Assembly (NCBI GenBank): GCA_945900965.1
Contig: CAMDKM010000003.1
Span: 7,639-71,638, forward strand
Origin: Bordetella parapertussis
GTDB taxonomy: Bacteria > Pseudomonadota > Gammaproteobacteria > Burkholderiales > JACQAP01
Length of the DNA stretch: 64,000 bases
Direction: 5' to 3'
This document shows, piece after piece, positions 1-12,626 of this stretch. Each line of letters opens with the position of its first letter. The first letter of the stretch is position 1. The translations under genes were made by a program, and so were the position numbers. Below the pieces are notes generated by a model, which saw only the letters and a program-made list of their open reading frames with translations, did not search any database and was not told where the DNA came from.

Positions 1-1
1 T

Positions 2-598
2 GCTGAACAACTCTGTTCCACCGTTGCTAGCGGTTCGACGCCATCTGCAGATCAGCTCTTCCAGCGGGACGGGGAAGTCCCCTTCATCAAAGTCTACAAC
101 CTTACATTTGGTGGCCCGTTGGATTTCTCCGTTAAGCCCACGTTTATCAGCAGAATCGTTCACGAAGGCCGTCTGGGTCGGTCGAAGGCATTCGCAGGTG
201 ATGTGCTTACAAATATTGTTGGTCCTCCGCTTGGGAAGGTCTCGATAGTCCCTGATCGTTTTCCTGAATGGAATATCAACCAAGCGATAGTCGTTTTTCG
301 GCCGACAGGAGCCATTTTCAACCGACTGTTGGCATTCTGGCTTCGCTCAGAAGCCGTGCTAGCGAGGCTGGATTGCACCGCGAAAGCAACGGCTGGCCAG
401 TTCAATATTCAGGTGACAACGTGCCGCAAGTTGGCGCTTCCCGTTCCGCCTCTGGCCGAGCAGGCGCGTATTGTGGCGGAAGTGGAGCGGCGGTTGAGCG
501 TGGTGGAGGAGTTGGAAGCGGTGGTGTTCGCCAACCTTCAGCGCGCCCTCCGACTTCGCCAGTCCATCCTCCAGAAAGCATTTTCCGGCAACTTCTGA
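2..598 (+). CDS. hsdS: Type I restriction-modification specificity subunit HsdS, C-terminal part (5' end lies left of the window)
   Basis: The frame is open from nt 2. The body looks like a target-recognition domain, and the C-terminal conserved helix LPVPPLAEQARIVAEVERRLSVVEELEAVVFANLQRALRLRQSILQKAFSG is typical of HsdS. Stop TGA at 596-598; hsdM lies in the same gene string. Confidence 0.85.
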   Translation, partial: AEQLCSTVASGSTPSADQLFQRDGEVPFIKVYNLTFGGPLDFSVKPTFISRIVHEGRLGRSKAFAGDVLTNIVGPPLGKVSIVPDRFPEWNINQAIVVFRPTGAIFNRLLAFWLRSEAVLARLDCTAKATAGQFNIQVTTCRKLALPVPPLAEQARIVAEVERRLSVVEELEAVVFANLQRALRLRQSILQKAFSGNF

Positions 599-611
599 AT
601 CCCGTGAACCT

Positions 612-2882
612 ATGCGCGAGCCAACACTAAACCAAAAAACGAGGTTCGTTCTCCTACTCGTCGACGTGGTGATTCTCTGTGCTGCGAGTTGGTTCGCGTT
701 TGGCAGAGTGTTTCCGGCTGGCGACGACAAAGGCTTCTGGTTCTACACTGCATTGTTGGGACTTCTTCTCGGAAGTCGGCTCGATACTCCCTTCTTCGCC
801 AAGCCCGCGGACGTCGTTCTCTACGCCGCACCCGCAGCTATTGCACTCGCATTGGGCAACTCCTGGACGCAGTGGAGTGAGGGTGTTCGTGTCGCCTATT
901 GTGTCGCAATGACATTTTGCATCGTTGCTGGTGTGCTTGGAGCGATTGCAATTCTCACCGTGGACAGCAAGACCGGTGGTACGCAAAGAGCATCGAACGC
1001 CGCTCGCGTCTTGGCGGAAACGCTCGGTGCGCCGCGCACGATCTATTCGGTCGTCATCGCCTTCGCGTTGTTCGCGTTCCACGGCTCGTCGCCGAAGGAA
1101 TTGGGCATCATCGTCGCAGCTTGGGTGTTGACCGGAGTGCTATCGCCCCTTGAAGGGTCTCTAAGAATCATACGGCGGTTGCGGCGAATCTTCAAACCCA
1201 ACACTATTTTCGACGCTGATGGAGAAGTCGTCGCTTACCAGACACCAGGATTAATCCTTGTTCGCCAATTCGGTTCAGGAAATGTCGAGACTGGCGACGT
1301 TGTCGCCGTGCATGACCCGCTCGGTAAGACCCGATTGGCACTTGCGCTTGACAATGTGGGTCGAGACGAAGGCGTGTTGCTTCGGACGATAGAGATTGCC
1401 GATGCCGAAGTCTCGGACGAACTCCGCGACCAGCTATCCGTACTTCTGCCGAATGCTGTCGTTCGTGTCCTCGCGCTTGACGAGGCGACCGTTCAAAATC
1501 GTCTGGTTAAAACAAAGGGGGCTCTTGTAGGACTGGTCGCGCCGGACACTTCGGTGGAAAGGCTCTTCTTCGAGGTTGTGAAGGAGGAAGGTCTTGAAGA
1601 AGGACGCTTGGTCGAAGTGCAGATTGGTAAACGCGTCGTCACGTATCAGCTGGTAAACGGGCTAACCAAAGAGGAAGTCGTCCAGCACAAGAACACACAC
1701 GGGTTTGCTCGCGCCCAAGCCCAGAAAATTGGCGAGTGGGATGCGGCAAGTAAGCGATTCACGTTCGTGAAGTGGCTGCCCGCTCCAAACGCTCCGGTCC
1801 TCCTGAAAACTACGGCAGAGTTCGTGACGAGCAGCAACGCCGTGGGGCATTTCCCGGGAACAGACTACCCAGTCTCAATCAAAAGTATCGACGATTTAGT
1901 AACGCACAACACTGCGATCCTCGGCATCCTCGGAGTGGGAAAGAGCATGCTGGCGATCGAACTCGTCGAGCGGATGATGGCGGCGGGCGTCAAAGTCATC
2001 TGCCTTGACTTGACCAATCAATATTCTCAGGAACTCTCGGCTTATTACGACCAAGTCCATGAAGAGGCTTGCCTGGCGAATATTCAGGAAGCAGGGCAGA
2101 AGGACCGCGAAGCGTGGGCGGATAATCCTGAGGACGGCGGAAGCATCCCTGCGTTAAGAGAGGCGTTTCACGCTGACCTGGTCGCTTATTTGGACGAGGA
2201 CAATCCTCGGCGGTTGAAAATCTATAATCCGTCTCAGGTGGTCGGAAGCAAACAACTAAGCGAGCCCAAATCTTACAATGATGGAGGGTGGAAACGCGGG
2301 GCGGCTCTTTGGGGTGTGACGCCAGTCGAAGTGACACGCATCGTTTCCGAAACCGTACTGACGCTCCTGCAAGACAAGATGTCCTCCAAGGCACGGGTGT
2401 GTTTGGTATATGAAGAAGCACACTCGCTCATTCCAGAATTTAGTGCTGTAGCCTCACCTTCCGACCGAGAAGCGAGCAATGGAACGGCGCGAGCAATTCT
2501 ACAGGGGCGAAAGTTCGGACTTGGCTGTCTGGTTGTGACCCAACGGACGGCCAACGTGACAAAGACGATCCTTAATCAGTGCAACACGGTATTCGCGATG
2601 AGGACCTTCGATGAAACCGGGAAGGAGTTCCTGGCAAACTATATTGGTAAAGATTATGCGGCTTCGCTGTCATCCATTTCCGAGCGCCACGCCGTGTTCT
2701 TTGGCAAAGCGTCGAGTTGTGAGAATCCGATCTTGATACGACTGAACGACCGAGAGGAGTTCCGTCAGGCATTCCGCGCTGAGAACCCGCCGCCTGCGCT
2801 TCCCTCGGAAGATAAGACTCCCGAGGTAACGCGACCGGCAGCCCTTCCGGGCAATCATCCGGACGACGATACTCCGTTTTGA
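612..2882 (+). CDS. Polytopic-membrane HerA/DUF87-type P-loop ATPase (FtsK/HerA clade), embedded in the type I R-M operon
   Basis: 756-aa ORF with ATG 612, 13 nt after the hsdS stop. aa ~10-190 contain about six hydrophobic helices (FVLLLVDVVILCAASWFAF, VAYCVAMTFCIVAGVLGAIAILTV, IYSVVIAFALFAF, LGIIVAAWVLTGVL and others). The middle region is beta-rich. The C-terminal core has Walker A GILGVGKS (nt 1923-1946), Walker B LVYEEAH (nt 2403-2423) and GRKFGLGCLVVTQRTANV, the HerA/DUF87 pattern. The tail is Pro/acidic and ends DDDTPF. Confidence 0.8.
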   Translation: MREPTLNQKTRFVLLLVDVVILCAASWFAFGRVFPAGDDKGFWFYTALLGLLLGSRLDTPFFAKPADVVLYAAPAAIALALGNSWTQWSEGVRVAYCVAMTFCIVAGVLGAIAILTVDSKTGGTQRASNAARVLAETLGAPRTIYSVVIAFALFAFHGSSPKELGIIVAAWVLTGVLSPLEGSLRIIRRLRRIFKPNTIFDADGEVVAYQTPGLILVRQFGSGNVETGDVVAVHDPLGKTRLALALDNVGRDEGVLLRTIEIADAEVSDELRDQLSVLLPNAVVRVLALDEATVQNRLVKTKGALVGLVAPDTSVERLFFEVVKEEGLEEGRLVEVQIGKRVVTYQLVNGLTKEEVVQHKNTHGFARAQAQKIGEWDAASKRFTFVKWLPAPNAPVLLKTTAEFVTSSNAVGHFPGTDYPVSIKSIDDLVTHNTAILGILGVGKSMLAIELVERMMAAGVKVICLDLTNQYSQELSAYYDQVHEEACLANIQEAGQKDREAWADNPEDGGSIPALREAFHADLVAYLDEDNPRRLKIYNPSQVVGSKQLSEPKSYNDGGWKRGAALWGVTPVEVTRIVSETVLTLLQDKMSSKARVCLVYEEAHSLIPEFSAVASPSDREASNGTARAILQGRKFGLGCLVVTQRTANVTKTILNQCNTVFAMRTFDETGKEFLANYIGKDYAASLSSISERHAVFFGKASSCENPILIRLNDREEFRQAFRAENPPPALPSEDKTPEVTRPAALPGNHPDDDTPF

Positions 2883-2886
2883 AATC

Positions 2887-4386
2887 ATGAGTAACCCGAA
2901 CGCCCTCGTCCAAAAACTCTGGAATTACTGCAACATCCTGCGGGATGACGGTCTGTCCTACGGCGATTACGTCGAGCAGTTGACGTTTCTGCTGTTCCTG
3001 AAAATGGCGGACGAGCAGGCGAAGCCGCCATTCAACAAGCCGTCGCCCATCCCCAAAGGCAAGGACTGGCCTGCTTTGCTGGCCAAAGATGGCGACGATC
3101 TCGAGATTCATTACCGCCATACGCTGGAGGAACTCGGAAAACGCTCGGGCATGCTCGGCGTCATTTTCCGCAAGGCGCAGAACAAGATCCAGGACCCGGC
3201 CAAGTTGCGCCGGCTCATCGTAGATTTGATCGACAAAGAGGAGTGGTCCAGCCTCTCCGCCGACGTGAAGGGCGATGCCTACGAGGGCTTGCTTCAGAAG
3301 AACGCCGAGGACGTGAAGGGCGGCGCGGGCCAGTACTTCACCCCGCGCCCGCTCATTGCCGCCATCGTGGACGTGGTCGCCCCGCAACCGGGGCAGGCAA
3401 TTTGTGATCCGGCTTGCGGCACAGGCGGTTTCCTGCTCGCTGCGCATGATTATCTGGCGAAGCACTACCAGCTCGACCGGGCAGAAAAGAAGAAGCTCAA
3501 GAGCGGCACGTTTTTCGGCATCGAACTGGTGGACAGCGTCACCCGTCTCTGCGCGATGAATCCATTGCTGCACGGCATCGGCGGAGAGTCCGAAGAGGAT
3601 TTGCCGGTCGTCACCAAGGACGCACTGGCCGGGAAGCACGGCGAGTACGAGATCGTCCTGGCCAATCCGCCGTTCGGCAAGAAGAGCAGCGTGACCATCG
3701 TCAATGAGGCTGGTGAGTCGTCCAAGGAATCGCTCATCATCAACCGCGACGACTTCTGGGCGAGCACGAGCAACAAGCAGCTCAATTTTCTCCAGCACAT
3801 TTTCACCATCCTAAAGCAGCACGGCCGTGCGGCGGTGGTGCTGCCGGACAACGTGCTGTTCGAAGGCGGCGCCGGTGAAACCATCAGGCGCGAATTACTC
3901 AAGCAGGCAGACGTTCACACCCTGCTGCGCCTGCCTACCGGCATCTTCTACGCGCAAGGCGTGAAGGCGAACGTCCTGTTCTTCGACCGCAAGCCCGCGC
4001 AGGAAAAACCGTGGACGCAGAAGCTGTGGATCTACGATCTGCGCACTAACCTGCATTTCACGCTCAAGGAGAACACCCTCAAGCGCAGCGACCTCGACGA
4101 CTTCGTCGCCTGCTACAACCAGAAGAACCGAAACGATCGCAAAGAGAGCGAACGCTTCAAGGGCTTCACTTACGAGGAACTGGCGAAGCGCGACAAAGTG
4201 AACCTGGACATCTTCTGGCTGAAGGATGAGGCGCTGGAGGAGTCCGCGAATCTACCGGCGCCTGAAGTCATCGCACAGGACATTACGGATGACCTGGAAG
4301 CGGCGTTGGAGCAGTTTCGATTGATTGCCGATGATCTCAATAGTGGAGAATCCGAAATTGAAGCCACGGAAGCGTCGAACACCTAA
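2887..4386 (+). CDS. hsdM: Type I R-M DNA methyltransferase subunit HsdM (N6-adenine)
   Basis: HsdM N-terminal domain LWNYCNILRDDGLSYGDYVEQLTFLLFLKMADE, SAM motif DPACGTGGFL, and catalytic NPPFG (nt 3664-3678). The ATG is 4 nt after the upstream stop. Confidence 0.93.
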   Translation: MSNPNALVQKLWNYCNILRDDGLSYGDYVEQLTFLLFLKMADEQAKPPFNKPSPIPKGKDWPALLAKDGDDLEIHYRHTLEELGKRSGMLGVIFRKAQNKIQDPAKLRRLIVDLIDKEEWSSLSADVKGDAYEGLLQKNAEDVKGGAGQYFTPRPLIAAIVDVVAPQPGQAICDPACGTGGFLLAAHDYLAKHYQLDRAEKKKLKSGTFFGIELVDSVTRLCAMNPLLHGIGGESEEDLPVVTKDALAGKHGEYEIVLANPPFGKKSSVTIVNEAGESSKESLIINRDDFWASTSNKQLNFLQHIFTILKQHGRAAVVLPDNVLFEGGAGETIRRELLKQADVHTLLRLPTGIFYAQGVKANVLFFDRKPAQEKPWTQKLWIYDLRTNLHFTLKENTLKRSDLDDFVACYNQKNRNDRKESERFKGFTYEELAKRDKVNLDIFWLKDEALEESANLPAPEVIAQDITDDLEAALEQFRLIADDLNSGESEIEATEASNT

Positions 4387-5083
4387 ACGGGTTGGCACAC
4401 GGGCGCTGGTAGTAAACCGCCTGGAGAACGTCTCGAAGGACGTTTTCAAACAGTACTACGCGCTCATTACTGAGTTAGTTGGGGACTCACCTGGCATCTA
4501 TGCTCTTTACGACGGCGGGGCCCTCTACTACGTTGGGAAGTCGACGGAACTTCGTAAACGGGTTCGACACCATCTTAAAGATCGTCATCTCGCGAGTTGG
4601 ACGCATTTCAGTCTCTATCTCGCCCGACGTGAAGAACACATCCACGAGATTGAATCGCTTCTGGTCAGAATCGCGAACCCCAAGGGAAATCGAGTGATCC
4701 CGCGTGGCAGATCCACAGGGGCAATGGTTAAGCAGCTCAAGAGTTTGATTAAGGAGCGGCAAAAGCAAGAGCTAGCGAATTTATTCACCAGTAAACAGGC
4801 GGCTGGCAACGTGCGGCGACGCTCAATCAAGAGCGTTGGAACACATTCCCTAGCAGGACTTGTGAGTCGGCCGACAAAGCTCTACCGGACTTACAAAGGC
4901 CGGGAATACTCCGCGACGCTGAGCCCAAAAGGCTATGTGACTCTTAAGGGACGGCGTTTCAATTCAGCCAGCGCAGCAGCCAGATCTTTGATCAAGGCGA
5001 AGGGCGCAGTCAATGGGCGGGCGTTTTGGTACATCCGAAGCGGTAGTGGGGATTGGGTGAGGCTCATGGAATACCGAGGCTAA
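4331..5083 (+). CDS. GIY-YIG nuclease-domain protein with C-terminal DUF4357/RAMA-like domain
   Basis: GIY-YIG motif GIYALYDGGALYYVGKSTELRKRVRHH with a downstream conserved E. The C-terminus FNSASAAARSLIKAKGAVNGRAFWYI resembles the R-M-associated DUF4357/RAMA module. The ORF opens at TTG 4325 and the first ATG is 4331. It overlaps the hsdM 3' end by ~56 nt. Confidence 0.75.
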   Translation: MISIVENPKLKPRKRRTPKRVGTRALVVNRLENVSKDVFKQYYALITELVGDSPGIYALYDGGALYYVGKSTELRKRVRHHLKDRHLASWTHFSLYLARREEHIHEIESLLVRIANPKGNRVIPRGRSTGAMVKQLKSLIKERQKQELANLFTSKQAAGNVRRRSIKSVGTHSLAGLVSRPTKLYRTYKGREYSATLSPKGYVTLKGRRFNSASAAARSLIKAKGAVNGRAFWYIRSGSGDWVRLMEYRG

Positions 5084-5089
5084 TCCAAC

Positions 5090-6073
5090 GTGCGCTACTG
5101 GTGGGTAAACCAGAATCAAACTTACCGACATGAAGTGTCGGGAGGATATCTTTGGTCCCCAAAACGAAAAGCAAACGGAGCAATCAATCCGTTTTACGAA
5201 TTCATGCGAGAGGTAGCCCCTGGGGATATGGTCCTATCCTTTAGGGACACCTTAATTTGTGCGATAGGTATCGCGCAGTCGCATTGCTACGAATGTCCTA
5301 AGCCGAACGAATTTGGCTCCGTGGGAATGAATTGGAGCATGATTGGATGGAAAGTAGACGTAAAGTACGTCGAACTTTCGAATCGTATCCGTCCATTCGA
5401 TCACATTAGCGCGCTCCGTCGTTACCTCCCTGACAAATACTCTCCCTTGTCGAATGCAGGGAGAGGTAGTCAGTCTGTATACCTGACGGAAATGCCGATA
5501 GGTCTATTCAATGCGCTGGCGAGTCTGATTGGAACGGAAGTTCAGCACGCGATTCAGATCGCAAAAAGTGTCGCTCGGATGCCCGGAGCGAATCGAGCGC
5601 CCGCAGAAGGTGTCGTGGTATGGGAAGAACACTTAAGGCAGGAACTTGAACGAGACATCTCAATAAATGAAACAGAGCGCGAGGCAATTGTTCTTGCTCG
5701 CCGTGGGCAGGGCCTCTTTCGGCGCCGCGTGTCTGAGCTTGAAGCGCGTTGTCGTGTTACGCGTGTTTCCGAGCCAGAGCATCTTCGCGCGAGCCATTGC
5801 AAGCCCTGGCGCGACAGCTCTAACGAAGAGCGCCTTGACGGAGAAAATGGATTGCTTCTAACGCCTAGCATCGATCATTTATTCGATCGGGGGTTCATCT
5901 CGTTTGAGGCCAATGGTCGTTTGCTAATTTCTCCGGTGTCTCACAAAGTCTCTCTTCAGAAAATGGGAGTTGAGACTGACGGGAAAGTGGTTGCAGGAGG
6001 CTTTAGCGAGGGACAACGGAAATACCTCGAGTACCATCGTGAGTCGGTGTTTCTGCAGGCAAAACGACGCTAA
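5090..6073 (+). CDS. HNH endonuclease with N-terminal PUA/EVE-like putative modified-DNA reader domain (type IV restriction-like)
   Basis: GTG start 6 nt after the upstream stop. HNH_2-type motif LRASHCKPWRDSSNEERLDGENGLLLTPSIDHLFDRGFISF. The N-terminus MRYWWVNQNQTY..GGYLWSPK..PGDMVLSF..ICAIGIA resembles PUA-superfamily readers; this fold assignment is by eye. Confidence 0.7.
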   Translation: MRYWWVNQNQTYRHEVSGGYLWSPKRKANGAINPFYEFMREVAPGDMVLSFRDTLICAIGIAQSHCYECPKPNEFGSVGMNWSMIGWKVDVKYVELSNRIRPFDHISALRRYLPDKYSPLSNAGRGSQSVYLTEMPIGLFNALASLIGTEVQHAIQIAKSVARMPGANRAPAEGVVVWEEHLRQELERDISINETEREAIVLARRGQGLFRRRVSELEARCRVTRVSEPEHLRASHCKPWRDSSNEERLDGENGLLLTPSIDHLFDRGFISFEANGRLLISPVSHKVSLQKMGVETDGKVVAGGFSEGQRKYLEYHRESVFLQAKRR

Positions 6074-7236: not shown

Positions 7237-8220
7237 TTAAGCGACCGGCTGCCGCAAATGGCACGCCACCCATTGTCCCGGGTAAATCTCTTGTAATGGC
7301 GGCTCCTCGCGCTTGCAGCGCTCCTCGACATAAGGGCAGCGCGTATGAAAGCGACAACCTGATGGCGGATTGATCGGGCTCGGCACATCGCCCGCGAGCA
7401 GGCGTCGCTGCTTGCGCAGCGTCGGATCCGGCACAGGTACGGCTTCCAGGAGCGCCTCGGTATACGGATGCTGGGGACGCGTAAAAATCGCTCGCTTGGG
7501 TGCAATTTCCACGATCTTGCCGAGATACATCACCGCCACGCGATGGCTGATATGCTCGACCACCGCCAGATCATGTGCAATGAACAGGTACGAGAGGCCG
7601 AATTCCGCTTGCAGGTCCATAAGCAGATTGATCACCTGCGCCTGTACCGACACATCGAGTGCCGACACCGGTTCGTCGCACACGATCAGCCGGGGCTGCA
7701 CTGATAGCGCCCGTGCGATGCCGAGGCGCTGGCGCTGACCGCCCGAAAATTCGTACGGATATTTCTCCATCTGATCGGCCCGCAGGCCCACGCGCTCGAA
7801 TAAGCGCGCCGCGCGCAAATTCACCTCGGCTGAGGAGAGCGACTCGTAATTGCGGATCGGCTCGGCCACGATGTCTGCGGCGCGCATGCGCGGGTTGAGC
7901 GACGAGTAGGGGTCCTGGAATACCGCCTGCAGCTCGCGCCGCACTGGTCGCATAGCGGCGCGCTTGAGCCGATCGATGCGCCGCCCGCGCCACAGAACCT
8001 CACCCTCGGTCGGATCCTGCAGCCGCAAGATCAGCTTGCCAGTCGTGGACTTTCCACAGCCGGATTCGCCGACCAGACCCAGCGTTTCGCCGGCATTGAT
8101 CTGAAAACTCACGCCGTCGACGGCGTGAACTTTGGCGCCGCGTGCGAGCCATCCGGTCTTTGCCGGAAAAAACTTGCGCAGCTCCCGAACTTCGAGCAAA
8201 ACCTCGCCTGAGGCCGTCAT
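7237..8220 (-). CDS. Peptide/nickel-type ABC transporter ATP-binding protein (DppF/OppF-like)
   Basis: Walker [10 protein letters not shown], signature FSGGQRQR, Walker B LIVCDEP, and the C-terminal oligopeptide-type extension. The likely start [11 protein letters not shown] at 8220 forms an ATGA overlap with the upstream gene. Confidence 0.9.
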
Positions 8221-9200
8221 GGGACGGGGTTCCAGCAGGCCGCCCAATGGTCCGGACCGTGAGTCGTTAGCCGCGGCACTTCCTGCAAACAACGCTCAGT
8301 TGCATTCGGGCAGCGCGGGGCGAAAAGACAGCCTGGCGGCGCGTCCTTCAGCGACGGCACCATCCCGGTAATTTCAACTAGACGTTTGCCGCCCTCCGCG
8401 CGTACCGAATCGCCAAGTCGCGGCATGGACCCCAGCAGGCCGCGGGTGTAGGGGTGGCGCGGCCGCGCAAAAAGCGTTTCGACCGGCGCCTCCTCCACTT
8501 TGCGCCCCGCATACATCACCACAACGCGCTGCGCCATCTCGGCCACGACGCCGAGATCGTGCGTGATCAGAATGATCGCCGCGCCGGTCGCGCGCGCTAG
8601 CTCGCGCATCAGATCCAGGATCTGGGCCTGTATCGTGACATCGAGCGCCGTGGTAGGTTCGTCGGCAATCAGCAGACGCGGACCGCAGGCCAGAGCCATG
8701 GCGATCATTACGCGCTGTCGCATGCCGCCCGAGAGCTCGTGCGGATATTGGCGCACGCGCCGCTCGGGTTCGGGCATGTGTACCCTGCGCAGCATCTCGA
8801 CGGCTTTGGCCATGGCAACGCGTTGCGAGAGGCCGCGGTGCAGAACCAGACCTTCGGCGATCTGCCGGCCAACTGTCAGCGCGGGATTGAGCGAAGTCAT
8901 TGGCTCCTGAAAGATCATCGAGATGGCATCGCCACGCACCGCCCGCATTTCCTCTTCCGTCAGCGCCAGCAAATCGCGACCTTCGAAAAGCACGCGCCCG
9001 GCGACGATGCGGCCAGGCGGCGAGGCGATGAGCCGCAGGATGGAAAGCGAGGTGACGCTCTTGCCGCATCCCGACTCGCCCACCACCGCGAGCGTCTCGC
9101 CCGGCGCGACCGCGAACGACACGCCGTCCACCGCGCGCACGACGCCGTCGCGCGTTAAGAAGTGGGTCTGTAACCCCTCGATTTCGAGCAGCGCGGCCAC
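8217..9200 (-). CDS. Peptide/nickel-type ABC transporter ATP-binding protein (DppD/OppD-like)
   Basis: [29 protein letters not shown]. The likely start is GTG at 9200 ([10 protein letters not shown]), 4 nt after the permease stop. The ORF is open up to 9254. Confidence 0.88.
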
Positions 9201-9204
9201 GATG

Positions 9205-10083
9205 CTACATCCGCCGCGCGAGGCGCGGATCGAGCGCGTCGCGCAGGCCGTCACCGAGAAGATTCACCGCCAGCACGGTCAGTGACAGGAAAATGCCGGG
9301 GAACAGAATCAGGTAGCCGGCAATCTGGAAAAGACTTCTGGCCTCGGCCATGATGTTGCCCCAGCTCGGAATGTTCGGCGGAGTGCCGGCGCCGATAAAC
9401 GAGAGAATGGCTTCGGTGATCATTGCCGAAGCGCAGATATAAGTGCCCTGCACCAGTAGCGGTGCCACCGTGTTGGGCAGAATATGGCGTAACAAAATGA
9501 GCGGTAGATTCGTACCCGCGGCGATCGCGGCTTCCACGTACGGCTGCTCGCGCAAACTCAGCACCAGGCTGCGAACCAGCCGAACGACCCGTGGCACTTC
9601 CGCGAGCGTGATGGCAAAAATGACATTGCCGACACTGGCTTTCGTCAAGGCCATCAGCGCGATGGCAAGCAGCACCGAGGGGATCGACATCAGGCCGTCC
9701 ATCACGCGCATGACAATGGCGTCGAGCCAGCGAATAAACCCTGTGACCAATCCGATCGTCATTCCCACGATAATCGATAACACCGCGACGGTGATCCCAA
9801 TGGTCAGCGAGATGCGCGAACCGTAGATAACCCGGCTGTAGACGTCGCGCCCCAGCATGTCCGTGCCGAACCAGAATTCGCCCGAGGGTGATTTGAGACG
9901 ATTCACCGGCGCCAGTGCCTGCGGGTCCACCGTGCCCAGAAAAGGTGCCAGCAGCGCGCTCAGACACATGAGGGCCAGCACCACCCCGCCGACGATGGCG
10001 GTTGGATGCCGGCGGATCGCCTCACGCAACCAAAGCCAGGTTGGCGAGACGGACTTCGGCGCGACGAGAACGGCGCTGGCCAT
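9205..10083 (-). CDS. ABC transporter permease (DppC/OppC-like)
   Basis: Multi-TM protein with a BPD-transporter EAA-like loop (EAAIAAGTN), in an operon with the ATPases. Confidence 0.88.
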
Positions 10084-10084
10084 T

Positions 10085-11026
10085 TCAGTAGCGGATGCGC
10101 GGGTCGAACAGCCGGTAAGAAAGATCGACCAGCAGGTTGATCAACACGTACACCCCGGAAAACAGCAGGATGACGCCCTGAATGATGGGGTAGTCGCGCC
10201 GCAATATCGCATCGACTGTCAGTCTGCCGATGCCCGGAATCGCGAACACCGTCTCAGTGACGATCGCTCCGCTGATCAGCAAAGCGATGCCGATGCCGAT
10301 CACCGTCATGATGGGGACGCCGGCATTCTTGAGCGCGTGGCGCGTGAGTACCACACGCGGGGCGAGTCCTTTTGCGTTCGCAGTGCGGATGTAATCCTGC
10401 GCCAGCACGTCGAGCATGGCCGCGCGTGTGATTCTTGCGATGAACGCCATGTAAACCGTGCCCAGCGCAATGCTGGGCAGAATCAGATGCGATAGCCAGG
10501 GCCAGAGGCCTTCGCCGAGCGATCGATAACCCTGTACCGGCAGCCATTCGAGTTGGATCGAAAACAGGCCGATCAGCAAATAGGCCAGCACAAACACCGG
10601 CACTGAAAACGCAAGGACCGAGAAGCCCATGACCAGCCGATCGGCCCAGGTGCCGGCCTTCGCGGCGGCGACAACTCCTAACGGCACCGCGGTCAGCACC
10701 GCAAAAAGTAACGTCAACAGCGTTAGCGACACGGTCGGCTGCACCCGCTGGCCGATGAGCGTGGTGACTGGAAGATTGGTGAAGATCGAGGTGCCCAGAT
10801 CGCCGTGCAGCAGTCGGCCAACCCAGCCGCCGAACTGCACCAGAAACGGCTCGTCAAGACCCAGCTTGGCGCGGATGTGCCGGATGTCATCCGCGGTCGC
10901 CACGTCCCCGGCGATGACCGCGGCCGGATCACCCGGGGTCAGAAACAGCAGAGAAAAAACGAACAGCGCAACGACCCCCATCACGACCACGGTCGCACCG
11001 AGCCGGCGTACAACGTAGACAATCAT
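10085..11026 (-). CDS. ABC transporter permease (DppB/OppB-like)
   Basis: The N-terminus MIVYVVRRLGATVVVMGVVALFVFSLLFLTPGDPA is typical of DppB-family permeases. Confidence 0.88.
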   Translation of the reverse strand: MIVYVVRRLGATVVVMGVVALFVFSLLFLTPGDPAAVIAGDVATADDIRHIRAKLGLDEPFLVQFGGWVGRLLHGDLGTSIFTNLPVTTLIGQRVQPTVSLTLLTLLFAVLTAVPLGVVAAAKAGTWADRLVMGFSVLAFSVPVFVLAYLLIGLFSIQLEWLPVQGYRSLGEGLWPWLSHLILPSIALGTVYMAFIARITRAAMLDVLAQDYIRTANAKGLAPRVVLTRHALKNAGVPIMTVIGIGIALLISGAIVTETVFAIPGIGRLTVDAILRRDYPIIQGVILLFSGVYVLINLLVDLSYRLFDPRIRY

Positions 11027-11051
11027 GTGACGATCCTGGCGGGCGGCGCCC

Positions 11052-12626
11052 TCACTTCTTCTCGACGTTCCAGAGGAAGGTCACCGGTGCGATGATCATG
11101 CCGGATAGATTCGATCGGTAGGCCGTGGGCAGGATGAACTGCGCTGTGGTGATATACGGCACGAAGCGGAAGGCTTCGCGCTGAACGGCGTCGGCGGCTC
11201 TTTTGCCCGACGCGGAGTCGGTCGTGTTGAACCAGGCCTGGCGCAGCTCTTCAAGCTTCGGGTCGGCGGGCCAGCCGATCCAGGACTTCTCGCCCAGGGT
11301 GACCATCGCCATGCTGGCTGGCGAAATCATGTCGGGCCCGACCCACCAGGTGTGGAAGATGGACCACCCGCCTTTCTCGACCGGTTCCTTGGACGTGCGC
11401 CGGGTGATAAGCGTTCCCCAGTCGCCTGCCTGCAACTCCACGTTGAGACCCAATTTGCGCAACAGATCGGTCGTGATGAGCGACTGCGAATGCACGATGG
11501 GCTGGTCGGTTGCCGAAATAATGACGATCTTTTCGCCCTTGTAACCGGATTCCTGAATCAGCTTCTTGGCTTTGTCGACGTCGCGGCTACCCTTCAGCGG
11601 CTCGGCGCCGACTTCGGAAGACAATGGCGTCCCGCAGGTGAAAAACGAATAACAGGGGTGAGCACTTTTTTCGCTGCCCCCGATGCCTAATACATAATCC
11701 TGCTGATTGACGCCGTAGAGCAGCGCCTGGCGCAGTTTCTGGTTGTTGAACGGCGGCTGGAGGAAATTGAAGCGGATCATGCCGAGCGAGCCGAGCGGAT
11801 CGATGTTCTCGACGCGGATGTCTTTGTTCTTGCGCAGCAGCGGAATCAGATCGGGCGGCAACTGCTCCCACCAGTCGGCCTCGCCCGCACCGAGTGCCGC
11901 GGCAGCGGTGGCCGAATCCGGGATATACATCCATTCGACACGATTCACCTTGACCACTTTGCCGCCGGCCGCCCAGGACGGCGCCTCCTTGCGCGGTATG
12001 TAATCGGTGTTCTTGACATAAACGACTTTGTTGCCGGGTACCCATTCCTCTTTCACGAACTTGAATGGGCCCGAGCCGATGACTTCGGTGATGTTCTGGA
12101 ACGCGTCGGCCTTTGCAATCCGCTCGGGCATGATGAAGGGCACGTTCGACGAAAGCTTCCCGAGTGCGTCGAGCGTGAGCGGAAACGGTTTTTTGAGTTT
12201 GAGCTTGAATGTCTTGTCGTTCACCGCCGTCCATGTATCGGTTGCCTCGGCGAGCTTCTGGCCAAGTGCATCGCGCTTGCCCCAGCGCTCCAGCGACGCG
12301 ATGCAGTCGGCAGAGCGCACTGGCTGACCATCGTGGAACTTTAGCCCGTCGCGGAGTGTAAATGTGTAGCTGCGTTTGTCCTTCGAGATTTCCCACTTGT
12401 CGACCATCTGCGGCTGAACTTGAAACTTGGCGTCGGTGGCAAACAGGGTGTCGTACACCATGTAACCGTGGTTACGGGTGATATATGCCGTGGTCGTGAT
12501 CGGATCCAGAATACGCAGATCGGCCTGCGCGATGAATTTCAGGACTTTATCTTGCGCCGACGCCGTACCTGCCGCCAACGCAACAACCAGCATGAACGCC
12601 CGAACCGTATTTGAAACGACATTCAT
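11052..12626 (-). CDS. ABC transporter substrate-binding protein, family 5 (peptide/nickel type)
   Basis: 524 aa with a signal peptide (VVALAAGTASAQD). Length and motifs fit the SBP_bac_5 family. It is the first gene of the five-gene importer operon. Confidence 0.88.
   Translation of the reverse strand: MNVVSNTVRAFMLVVALAAGTASAQDKVLKFIAQADLRILDPITTTAYITRNHGYMVYDTLFATDAKFQVQPQMVDKWEISKDKRSYTFTLRDGLKFHDGQPVRSADCIASLERWGKRDALGQKLAEATDTWTAVNDKTFKLKLKKPFPLTLDALGKLSSNVPFIMPERIAKADAFQNITEVIGSGPFKFVKEEWVPGNKVVYVKNTDYIPRKEAPSWAAGGKVVKVNRVEWMYIPDSATAAAALGAGEADWWEQLPPDLIPLLRKNKDIRVENIDPLGSLGMIRFNFLQPPFNNQKLRQALLYGVNQQDYVLGIGGSEKSAHPCYSFFTCGTPLSSEVGAEPLKGSRDVDKAKKLIQESGYKGEKIVIISATDQPIVHSQSLITTDLLRKLGLNVELQAGDWGTLITRRTSKEPVEKGGWSIFHTWWVGPDMISPASMAMVTLGEKSWIGWPADPKLEELRQAWFNTTDSASGKRAADAVQREAFRFVPYITTAQFILPTAYRSNLSGMIIAPVTFLWNVEKK

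Follow-up and report, generated by a model that had tools for sequence, protein, structure and literature searches.

A membrane-anchored HerA-family ATPase gene inside a type I restriction-modification operon: a candidate defence component

In a stretch of 64,000 nucleotides (nt) of Bordetella parapertussis DNA (contig CAMDKM010000003.1; the whole stretch is referred to below as the window), the genes for the specificity and methyltransferase subunits of a type I restriction-modification (R-M) system, hsdS and hsdM, are separated by an additional gene, here denoted X, which encodes a protein of 756 amino acids (aa) predicted to combine an N-terminal membrane domain, a HAS-barrel-like domain and an ATPase domain of the HerA clade. 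Our preferred reading, to which we assign a probability of about 40%, is that X is a membrane-anchored HerA-clade motor that would serve as a restriction-linked anti-invader module, a 'capture motor' added on to the R-M system and not a canonical Hsd subunit, and that the X family travels as cargo in R-M operons and defence islands. The initial annotation had proposed X as a candidate new defence component, and this proposal is supported by comparative genomics and structure prediction, which make X a credible candidate for a component of anti-phage defence.

HerA ATPases are established anti-phage scaffolds and motors, and R-M operons carry accessory 'backup' genes. To our knowledge, the HerA ATPases of defence systems have so far been found only as soluble partners of separate effectors. 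The X family unites a HerA motor with a conserved membrane domain and has been built repeatedly into several classes of R-M systems. If functional, X would represent a widespread new defence gene or extend one type I R-M lineage to four components, and it would provide a handle on the coupling of restriction and DNA entry at the membrane as well as a compact model for a single-gene, membrane-anchored translocase. With an operon of four genes, the family is readily testable.

Gene X and its operon

The following genes and protein domains are central to the analysis (window coordinates, strand, description, and evidence in brackets):

612..2882, + strand: gene X, predicted membrane-anchored HerA-family ATPase of 756 aa (ATG open reading frame, DUF87 above the gathering score, AlphaFold, Foldseek)
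612..1196, + strand: predicted N-terminal membrane domain of X, aa 1-195 (hydropathy, DSSP on the model, conservation, positive-inside counts)
1197..1886, + strand: beta-rich HAS-barrel-like domain of X, aa 196-425 (secondary structure of the model, Foldseek)
1887..2786, + strand: RecA-like HerA ATPase domain of X, aa 426-725 (invariant motifs, PADLOC HerA 1.3e-22, mad8 2.2e-11)
1..598, + strand: 3' part of hsdS, type I specificity subunit (Methylase_S 4.7e-7, PADLOC Specificity_I 8.6e-57)
2887..4386, + strand: hsdM, type I methyltransferase subunit (N6_Mtase 2.4e-67, HsdM_N, PADLOC MTase_I 2e-195)

The spacing of 13 nt and 4 nt given in the initial annotation for the 756 aa open reading frame (ORF) between hsdS and hsdM can be read directly in the sequence. 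The TGA stop codon of hsdS (596-598) lies 13 nt before the ATG of X at 612, and the TGA stop codon of X (2880-2882) is followed, after a gap of 4 nt, by the ATG of hsdM at 2887. An exact-sequence look-up retrieved the same contig in a version that reaches upstream of the window (locus L001). There, the gene order is hsdR-hsdS-X-hsdM; hsdR encodes 930 aa with ResIII, SWI2_SNF2 and EcoEI_R_C domains, the full hsdS (L001 6831-8228) encodes 465 aa, and hsdM encodes 499 aa. HsdR, HsdS and HsdM of a type I R-M system are thus all encoded in one operon, and X is an extra, non-canonical gene inside it. A scan for promoter-like and terminator-like sites inside and around X found none above chance. Because of the short gaps, the operon layout and this lack of internal signals, X is very likely co-transcribed with the R-M genes, in line with the initial annotation, which had considered co-transcription almost certain. 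From the short gaps, we infer that translation of X may also be coupled to that of hsdS and hsdM. The existence of full-length homologues with 32% to 91% identity in many phyla indicates that X is a real gene and not a chance ORF.

Domain architecture of X

The P-loop core of X had been assigned to the HerA type on the basis of its motifs, and the profile and structure searches that had been recommended concurred: HerA was recovered by Pfam, by Foldseek and by a profile of the family. Specifically, the only Pfam domain above threshold in X is DUF87 (PF01935, the HerA central domain), which matches around Walker A with 35.2 bits (gathering cut-off 23.2), and PF01935 is present in every homologue among the matches listed. 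A first AlphaFold model, built from 35 close homologues, was judged too weak (predicted local distance difference test, pLDDT, 69) and was superseded by a good model of the X monomer (pLDDT 93.2, predicted template modelling score 0.80) based on an alignment of 130 sequences down to 28% identity (alignment A4). With this model, the top 50 of 50 Foldseek matches in the PDB were HerA (E = 7e-18 to 9e-13, 447-614 aligned columns), headed by 4d2i and including Sulfolobus HerA, SIR2-HerA, DUF4297-HerA and HerA-NurA. The first model had also retrieved F1-ATPase subunits, FtsK (37th) and a viral packaging ATPase, at lower rank than HerA. The family profile matched HerA chains alone in the PDB and no FtsK, TrwB or VirB4. 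The top phmmer matches of X in the PDB, designer pentatricopeptide-repeat (PPR) proteins, were discarded as an artefact because they vanish with the family profile; they reflect a match of aa 426-466 summed over ten identical repeats.

All three P-loop motifs quoted in the initial annotation are present in the translation of X, namely GILGVGKS (Walker A; aa 438-445, nt 1923-1946), (C)LVYEEAH (Walker B; aa 597-604, nt 2400-2423) and GRKFGLGCLVVTQRTANV (aa 632-649). The last belongs to the stretch QGRK / QRTANV (aa 631-649), in which QGRK occupies aa 631-634. In the model, the ATPase domain is an alpha/beta domain with a helical insert (aa 426-724). It is preceded by a beta-rich stretch at aa 204-423, so that the HAS-barrel region assumed by the initial annotation is indeed seen; this stretch includes a long conserved beta-hairpin (aa 341-377). 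Foldseek alignments to HerA, and to F1-ATPase in the case of the first model, extend over 490-600 columns. Throughout the 130 sequences, G438, G441, G443, K444, E602, H604, Q631, R633, K634, Q644 and R645 are invariant in the ATPase domain, as are G307, Q346, G374 and G412 in the HAS-barrel-like domain. As Walker A, Walker B, QGRK and Q644-R645 are invariant, X is predicted to be an active ATPase. With a DUF87 match above threshold, a HAS barrel N-terminal to a RecA-like core, and intact Walker A, Walker B and Q-R motifs, sequence and model place X in the HerA clade of the FtsK-HerA P-loop ATPases (DUF87 / COG0433).

Hydropathy and the AlphaFold model indicate eight helices in aa 8-194, six of which are hydrophobic enough to span the membrane (approximately aa 8-30, 39-58, 65-81, 90-116, 141-156 and 161-176), whereas the remaining two are an amphipathic cytoplasmic helix and a basic linker. 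The number of lysine and arginine residues (K+R) across the family is 4.7 in the loop 117-142 and 4.1 past the last helix, and at most 0.8 in the loops 31-40, 82-91 and 157-162. This positive-inside pattern predicts six transmembrane (TM) helices with both termini inside, and thus a cytoplasmic HAS barrel and a cytoplasmic ATPase. Hydropathy, model and K+R topology therefore agree with the approximately six N-terminal TM helices expected by the initial annotation. The signature residues of the domain are W43, P60-F-F-x-K-P65-x-D67, G139, W171 and P179-x-E181. The PFFxKPxD motif lies in the second, cytoplasmic loop and is kept in a diverged Arcobacter copy as EPYYTKPVD; P65 and G139 are invariant. 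The membrane domain is conserved to the same degree as the beta domain: in each, the commonest residue of an alignment column has a mean frequency of 0.37. No Pfam relatives of aa 1-200 or aa 191-429 of X were found at E values up to 10, and a search of 17 diverse membrane domains of the family against Pfam yielded scattered sub-threshold matches but none that was significant. In the PDB, the membrane-domain profile matched a de novo coiled coil alone and no relative.

These features bear on an alternative explanation that we consider unlikely, albeit worth serious attention, namely that X is an abortive-infection effector. Its HerA ring would sense, or be switched by, invader DNA or the inhibition of the neighbouring R-M system, the latter as with PrrC in EcoprrI, and the six-helix domains, amounting to 36 helices per hexamer, would breach the inner membrane and kill or arrest the cell. 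The membrane domain of X takes the position at which the effectors of SIR2-HerA, DUF4297-HerA and HerA-NurA sit on the HAS-barrel face, and its conserved polar and aromatic residues exceed the needs of a simple anchor. Furthermore, X often stands alone, in which case it must sense and act within one polypeptide, and the R-M operons that carry it also carry Abi_2, RhuM-Fic, SLATT and Schlafen/AlbA_2 genes. However, toxic effector modules are usually swapped, whereas 111 of the 112 full-length family representatives have a multi-TM N-terminus and no effector swapping was seen among them, which favours a mechanical role over that of an exchangeable toxin. The domain also lacks likeness to known pore-forming or SLATT-type effectors (the SLATT_5 match had an E value of 0.15 and was obtained with 1 of the 17 membrane domains), and the links of the family to nucleases, described below, indicate DNA as the target.

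In a single protein, P0216 (715 aa), which may be an assembly artefact, the membrane domain is replaced by a soluble N-terminal stretch of about 285 aa without an assignment. This stretch had no match in Pfam and hence gave no clue about a domain swap.

Distribution and genomic contexts of the X family

An exhaustive HMMER search of 1.84 billion representatives yielded 446 clusters at 50% identity (E <= 1e-30); most family members have 700-760 aa and were aligned over their full length. In a pattern-seeded scan of one genome per species, relatives were found in at least 246 species spanning more than 12 phyla, and the 80 loci that were kept derive from Planctomycetota, Omnitrophota, Nitrospirota, Alpha-, Gamma- and Deltaproteobacteria, Bacteroidota, Firmicutes, Chloroflexota, Cyanobacteria, Acidobacteriota, Saccharibacteria and others. 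The family is thus rare per lineage yet very broadly spread, as expected for horizontally moving cargo. In the sources, its members are named only 'DUF87 domain-containing', 'ATP-binding' or 'hypothetical'. In three loci (L014, L054, L074), the reading frame of X is broken into two neighbouring ORFs (e.g. 380 and 320 aa), which represent frameshifts or sequencing errors and suggest occasional gene decay.

To survey the gene neighbourhoods, ORFs were called in 83 non-redundant loci and the neighbours were clustered by BLAST. R-M components were counted with iterated home-made hidden Markov models (HMMs) on stop-to-stop ORFs in the 48 loci whose flanks measure at least 3 kb on either side. Among these well-flanked loci, 12 (25%) contain a type I R-M system and 21 (44%) any R-M-like component, that is, type I, Gao_RL/MANTIS, type IIG or type III-like. 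A type I system takes up only a few kb of a genome of several Mb; from such general knowledge, we estimate the R-M enrichment at roughly two orders of magnitude. Among the immediate upstream neighbours (n = 65), Pfam identified Methylase_S in 8 cases, ResIII in 5, Eco57I in 4, and N6_Mtase and NOV_C in 3 each, and among the immediate downstream neighbours (n = 64), N6_Mtase in 4 cases and N6_N4_Mtase, DUF1156 and resolvase in 2 each. An all-against-all phmmer comparison of three genes on each side found methylase or specificity genes in 19 loci, R-type helicases in 14 and recombinase-related genes in 8. A universal partner gene of X was found neither by BLAST clustering nor, beyond R-M subunits and recombinases, by phmmer.

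The initial annotation had looked towards a conserved hsdS-X-hsdM arrangement. The survey bore out a repeated association with R-M systems, but the order is not family-wide. The exact placement of X between hsdS and hsdM was found in the closest subfamily (L001, L008, L014, L016, L095, L096), whereas in the family as a whole X also occurs elsewhere in type I operons, in other R-M classes, or alone. The order hsdR-hsdS-X-hsdM is present in L001, L008, L014, L026, L029, L035, L045, L095 and L096, the order hsdM-hsdS-X-hsdR in L018, and the order hsdM-hsdS-hsdR-X in L032, L065, L069 and L072. In L053, L057 and L064, X lies between a SNF2/NOV_C helicase-nuclease and a DUF1156 methylase, which is followed by a DUF499 ATPase, and this layout is partially present in L084 and L045. 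SNF2/NOV_C-DUF1156-DUF499 is the architecture of Gao_RL/MANTIS, or BR type 2 (bioRxiv 10.64898/2026.09.23.753747; PMC12839542). Gao_RL/MANTIS was characterised recently, and an extra fifth gene is not discussed in bioRxiv 10.64898/2026.09.23.753747. In L037, X adjoins a type IIG enzyme, and in L093 it ends a ResIII - SLFN - ParA - N6_N4_Mtase cluster with a type III-like res/mod pair. ORF6N genes complete the list of other cargo in X-bearing R-M operons mentioned above. In the loci without a detected R-M system, the near neighbours match 116 PADLOC families (E <= 1e-10) compared to 21 beyond 6.5 kb, a rough comparison in which many redundant PDC-S05 models inflate the figure of 116.

Several loci connect X with nucleases. 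A cassette X - HNH_2 - Hypoth_Ymh is present in L012 (9968-14092) and L094 (7001-11092), in both cases followed by a gene for a DUF4379 zinc-ribbon protein and adjoining a divergent serine recombinase gene and a DUF2924 gene; the L094 copy is inserted beside rpsB-tsf-pyrH-frr. The cassette resembles a small mobile element of defence that lacks any methylase. In the cultivated and sequenced strain Geotalea daltonii FRC-32 (L006; CP001390.1, 3497549-3515708), the X protein, Geob_3184, is 64% identical; its gene is flanked on one side by genes for an HSDR_N-domain protein and an unassigned 213-aa protein and on the other side by Metallophos - PDDEXK_3 - SMC_N (992 aa), a layout that recalls HerA-Mre11-Rad50 or SbcCD. 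In addition, the protein P0122 (1273 aa) is extended at its C-terminus by about 540 aa, which have weak matches to DUF559 and PDDEXK_1 and a D...DxK-like motif. The suggestion that X acts as a scaffold for GIY-YIG/HNH nucleases thus gains something from two loci with the X - HNH_2 - Hypoth_Ymh cassette and one nuclease fusion, but this support is thin.

Whether X is coupled to its R-M partners or merely moves with them was approached by comparing the operons of the closest subfamily. Relative to L001, the identities in L008, L095 and L096 are 81%, 55% and 71% for HsdR, 90%, 73% and 92% for HsdM, 71%, 65% and 69% for X, and 44%, 38% and 39% for HsdS; L008 is from a different phylum than L001. 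By these sequence comparisons, the closest subfamily inherits hsdR-hsdS-X-hsdM as one unit. The persistence of this linkage and the tightness of the gene junctions speak in favour of a functional integration of X in this lineage.

Several observations weigh against a restriction-linked role of the family. The R-M-linked members are scattered over the X tree, which indicates that the R-M association was formed or lost many times and fits hitch-hiking equally well as coupling. About half of the loci are without an R-M component, and some copies of X lie between housekeeping genes; given these housekeeping-flanked and the many stand-alone copies, X cannot strictly depend on an R-M partner. A family-wide conserved nuclease partner was not found by phmmer among the flanking three genes, and the nuclease matches of P0122 are below the Pfam thresholds in a single metagenomic protein that may be an assembly artefact. 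Moreover, the survey relied on crude ORF calling and home-made HMMs.

The same scatter is the starting point for the view that X is a selfish or unrelated passenger, a mobile single gene whose membrane function has nothing to do with DNA restriction and for which R-M operons are permissive insertion hotspots. The variable position of X within the operons, the copies between housekeeping genes and the several frameshifted copies (L014, L054, L074) would fit this view. Nevertheless, we regard it as improbable. X has long been inherited together with hsdR and hsdM, across phyla and with gene junctions that are tight or overlap, and its ATPase motifs show strong purifying conservation. The HerA-clade ATPases studied so far have all proved to be DNA motors, and a related ATPase is essential in the MADS system (bioRxiv 10.1101/2023.03.30.534895).

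The replicon types bear on a third alternative, that X is a pump for the export or donation of DNA, to which the neighbouring restriction enzyme would supply nicks or ends, and has no role in immunity. The precedent is TdtA of Thermus thermophilus, a membrane-bound HerA/FtsK hexamer that is needed for DNA donation and is encoded on an element resembling integrative and conjugative elements, alongside NurA, a type IIG restriction enzyme and an N4/N6 methylase (PMC5365140). The gene neighbourhoods of X follow the same logic, in that a mobile island combines a HerA-like ATPase with restriction and methylase genes; serine recombinases are frequent at X loci, and a ring with 36 TM helices might conceivably act as a conduit. 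However, such a pump is very doubtful: TdtA is without TM segments (PMC5365140), no NurA, conjugation or competence genes were recurrent near X in the neighbour survey, plasmids hardly ever carry X, and it is surrounded by defence genes of the classical kind (AbiE, defence-type reverse transcriptases, PDC candidates, Abi_2). The searches gave two genuine homologues in 72,556 plasmid records and none in 50,697 phage records, and no type IV secretion system (T4SS) genes were seen around X in the surveyed loci. In view of the absence from phages and the near-absence from plasmids, a role in conjugation or a T4SS was rejected. The plasmid copy from Aminobacter lies in an island with AbiEi/AbiEii and two reverse transcriptases. 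A family found mainly in conjugation or T4SS contexts and not enriched near R-M genes, which would have spoken against the initial annotation, is thus not what the records contain, with R-M-like components in 21 of the 48 well-flanked loci.

Downstream of hsdM, the window contains two further genes of the island:

4358..5083, + strand: GIY-YIG/RAMA (DUF2924-like) protein, PDC-S14-related (RAMA 4.3e-8, GIY-YIG 1.5e-3, PADLOC PDC-S14 2e-16)
5090..6073, + strand: HNH_2 endonuclease (HNH_2 6.6e-10, PADLOC HNH 3e-23)

The GIY-YIG/RAMA gene (gene call L001 11988-12713) overlaps the end of hsdM; its product is an island neighbour of X, which does not imply joint action with X. The HNH_2 protein is 53% identical to that of L012 (12287-13273), and an HNH_2 homologue lies directly 3' of X in both L012 and L094. 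It has an unassigned N-terminal domain of about 170 aa and could be a modification-dependent (type IV-like) enzyme. In L001, a small S-adenosylmethionine methyltransferase gene also follows after these two genes, and the region upstream of hsdR (L001 1-4000) contains an AbiEi_4 antitoxin-like gene, helix-turn-helix (HTH) genes and a transposase HTH fragment. The G+C content of the island is 51-58%, compared to 61-65% in the flanks, which points to its horizontal acquisition.

Downstream of the island, the window carries an ordinary Opp/Dpp-type operon for a peptide ATP-binding cassette transporter (7237-12626, - strand) and a cobalamin riboswitch (RF00174; 19233-19521, + strand, 82.8 bits, E = 6.7e-19). 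The Rfam scan of the window found no other family above the gathering score, and no tRNA gene was detected anywhere in the 64 kb.

Proposed mechanism and comparison with known systems

Under our preferred reading, X would assemble into a hexameric ring, with the HAS-barrel face and the six-helix domain directed towards the inner membrane and the ATPase ring in the cytoplasm. Solved HerA complexes have their partner (NurA, SIR2 or DUF4297) bound on the HAS-barrel face. As the membrane domain of X is fused N-terminally to the HAS barrel, the channel of the motor should face the membrane, that is, the site of DNA entry. The ring might then spend ATP to thread or capture ends of double-stranded DNA (dsDNA) near the membrane, which could be those of entering phage or plasmid DNA or ends cut by the co-expressed restriction complex, and X would hold or unwind the captured DNA or feed it to nucleases. 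The nuclease links (the L012/L094 cassette, the Geotalea locus and P0122), the precedent of mad8 and the capture concept support a DNA-targeting reading. In a more far-reaching version, which we hold to be rather improbable, the six-helix domains would form a conduit in line with the motor, and the membrane-bound ring would seize invading dsDNA at entry and pump it back or stall it. If true, this would be a new defence principle, in which restriction is tied to the entry site by a single polypeptide.

The closest structural relatives are the HerA proteins of SIR2-HerA / Nezha / Gao19 and DUF4297-HerA, which share with X a HAS barrel, a RecA-like ATPase and a location in defence islands and are among its best PDB matches. 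However, they are soluble and always paired with a separate effector gene, whereas X carries its six-TM domain in the same polypeptide and lacks such a partner, and the sequence identity is only 10-17%. The NCBIfam HerA_antiphage models gave 51.6 bits (NF042943, cut-off 800) and 45.7 bits (NF042944, cut-off 850) on X, and no SIR2 or DUF4297 genes were found in the window or next to X in the surveyed loci. With equivalog scores this far under the cut-offs and no such effector, X is not a member of these systems.

HerA-NurA, which acts together with Mre11-Rad50, belongs to the same ATPase clade, and the Geotalea copy of X adjoins Metallophos (Mre11/SbcD-like) and SMC_N (Rad50/SbcC-like) genes. 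In contrast to the housekeeping HerA-NurA, X is predicted to be membrane-embedded and is mobile and patchily distributed. NurA was not among the best 25 recurrent neighbour families per set, and without an adjacent NurA, X was not assigned to the HerA-NurA end-resection systems.

FtsK/SpoIIIE and the type IV coupling proteins (TrwB/VirD4) are hexameric DNA-pumping ATPases. They resemble X in the arrangement of an N-terminal membrane anchor followed by a P-loop ATPase. Membership of X in either group was rejected in view of a sub-threshold TrwB_AAD_bind match (17.8 against a cut-off of 20.5), no Pfam match of X to FtsK_SpoIIIE, and no T4SS context.

MADS, in turn, recognises a type-I-like bipartite site and needs the HerA-like mad8 for defence (bioRxiv 10.1101/2023.03.30.534895). 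The mad8 profile spans the complete ATPase domain (aa 431-701 of X, E = 2.2e-11), and HsdM and HsdS of the window also match mad2 and mad5 in PADLOC. However, the mad8 model, with about 314 positions, is without the HAS-barrel and membrane domains that X has. The X operon is not a MADS system: it has a canonical HsdR and lacks mad1, mad3, mad4, mad6 and mad7.

The likeness to TdtA, compared by published gene context alone, lies in the joint occurrence of a HerA-like ATPase with restriction and methylase genes. The accessory genes embedded in R-M operons (PrrC/RloC, other 'rlo' genes, Abi_2, RhuM-Fic, Schlafen/AlbA_2, SLATT) occupy the same niche in hsd operons as X, often together with it, but they belong to different protein families with different likely activities, and there is no membrane HerA motor among them.

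The concept of 'HerA/FtsK capture systems' is a proposal from the literature (PMC10853773, PMC12839542). A full-length model for X is present in none of PADLOC v2 (2023), NCBIfam and Pfam, and full-text searches of open-access papers and preprints found no polytopic-membrane HerA in R-M operons, which upholds the initial annotation in that no membrane HerA inside an hsdS-hsdM pair was found to be described. Taken together, each ingredient of X has a precedent, since both HerA proteins and membrane domains are known from defence systems and hsd operons are known to carry cargo genes, whereas the combination of HerA-based, R-M-associated cargo with an unclassified membrane domain and a four-gene type I R-M lineage appears to be new.

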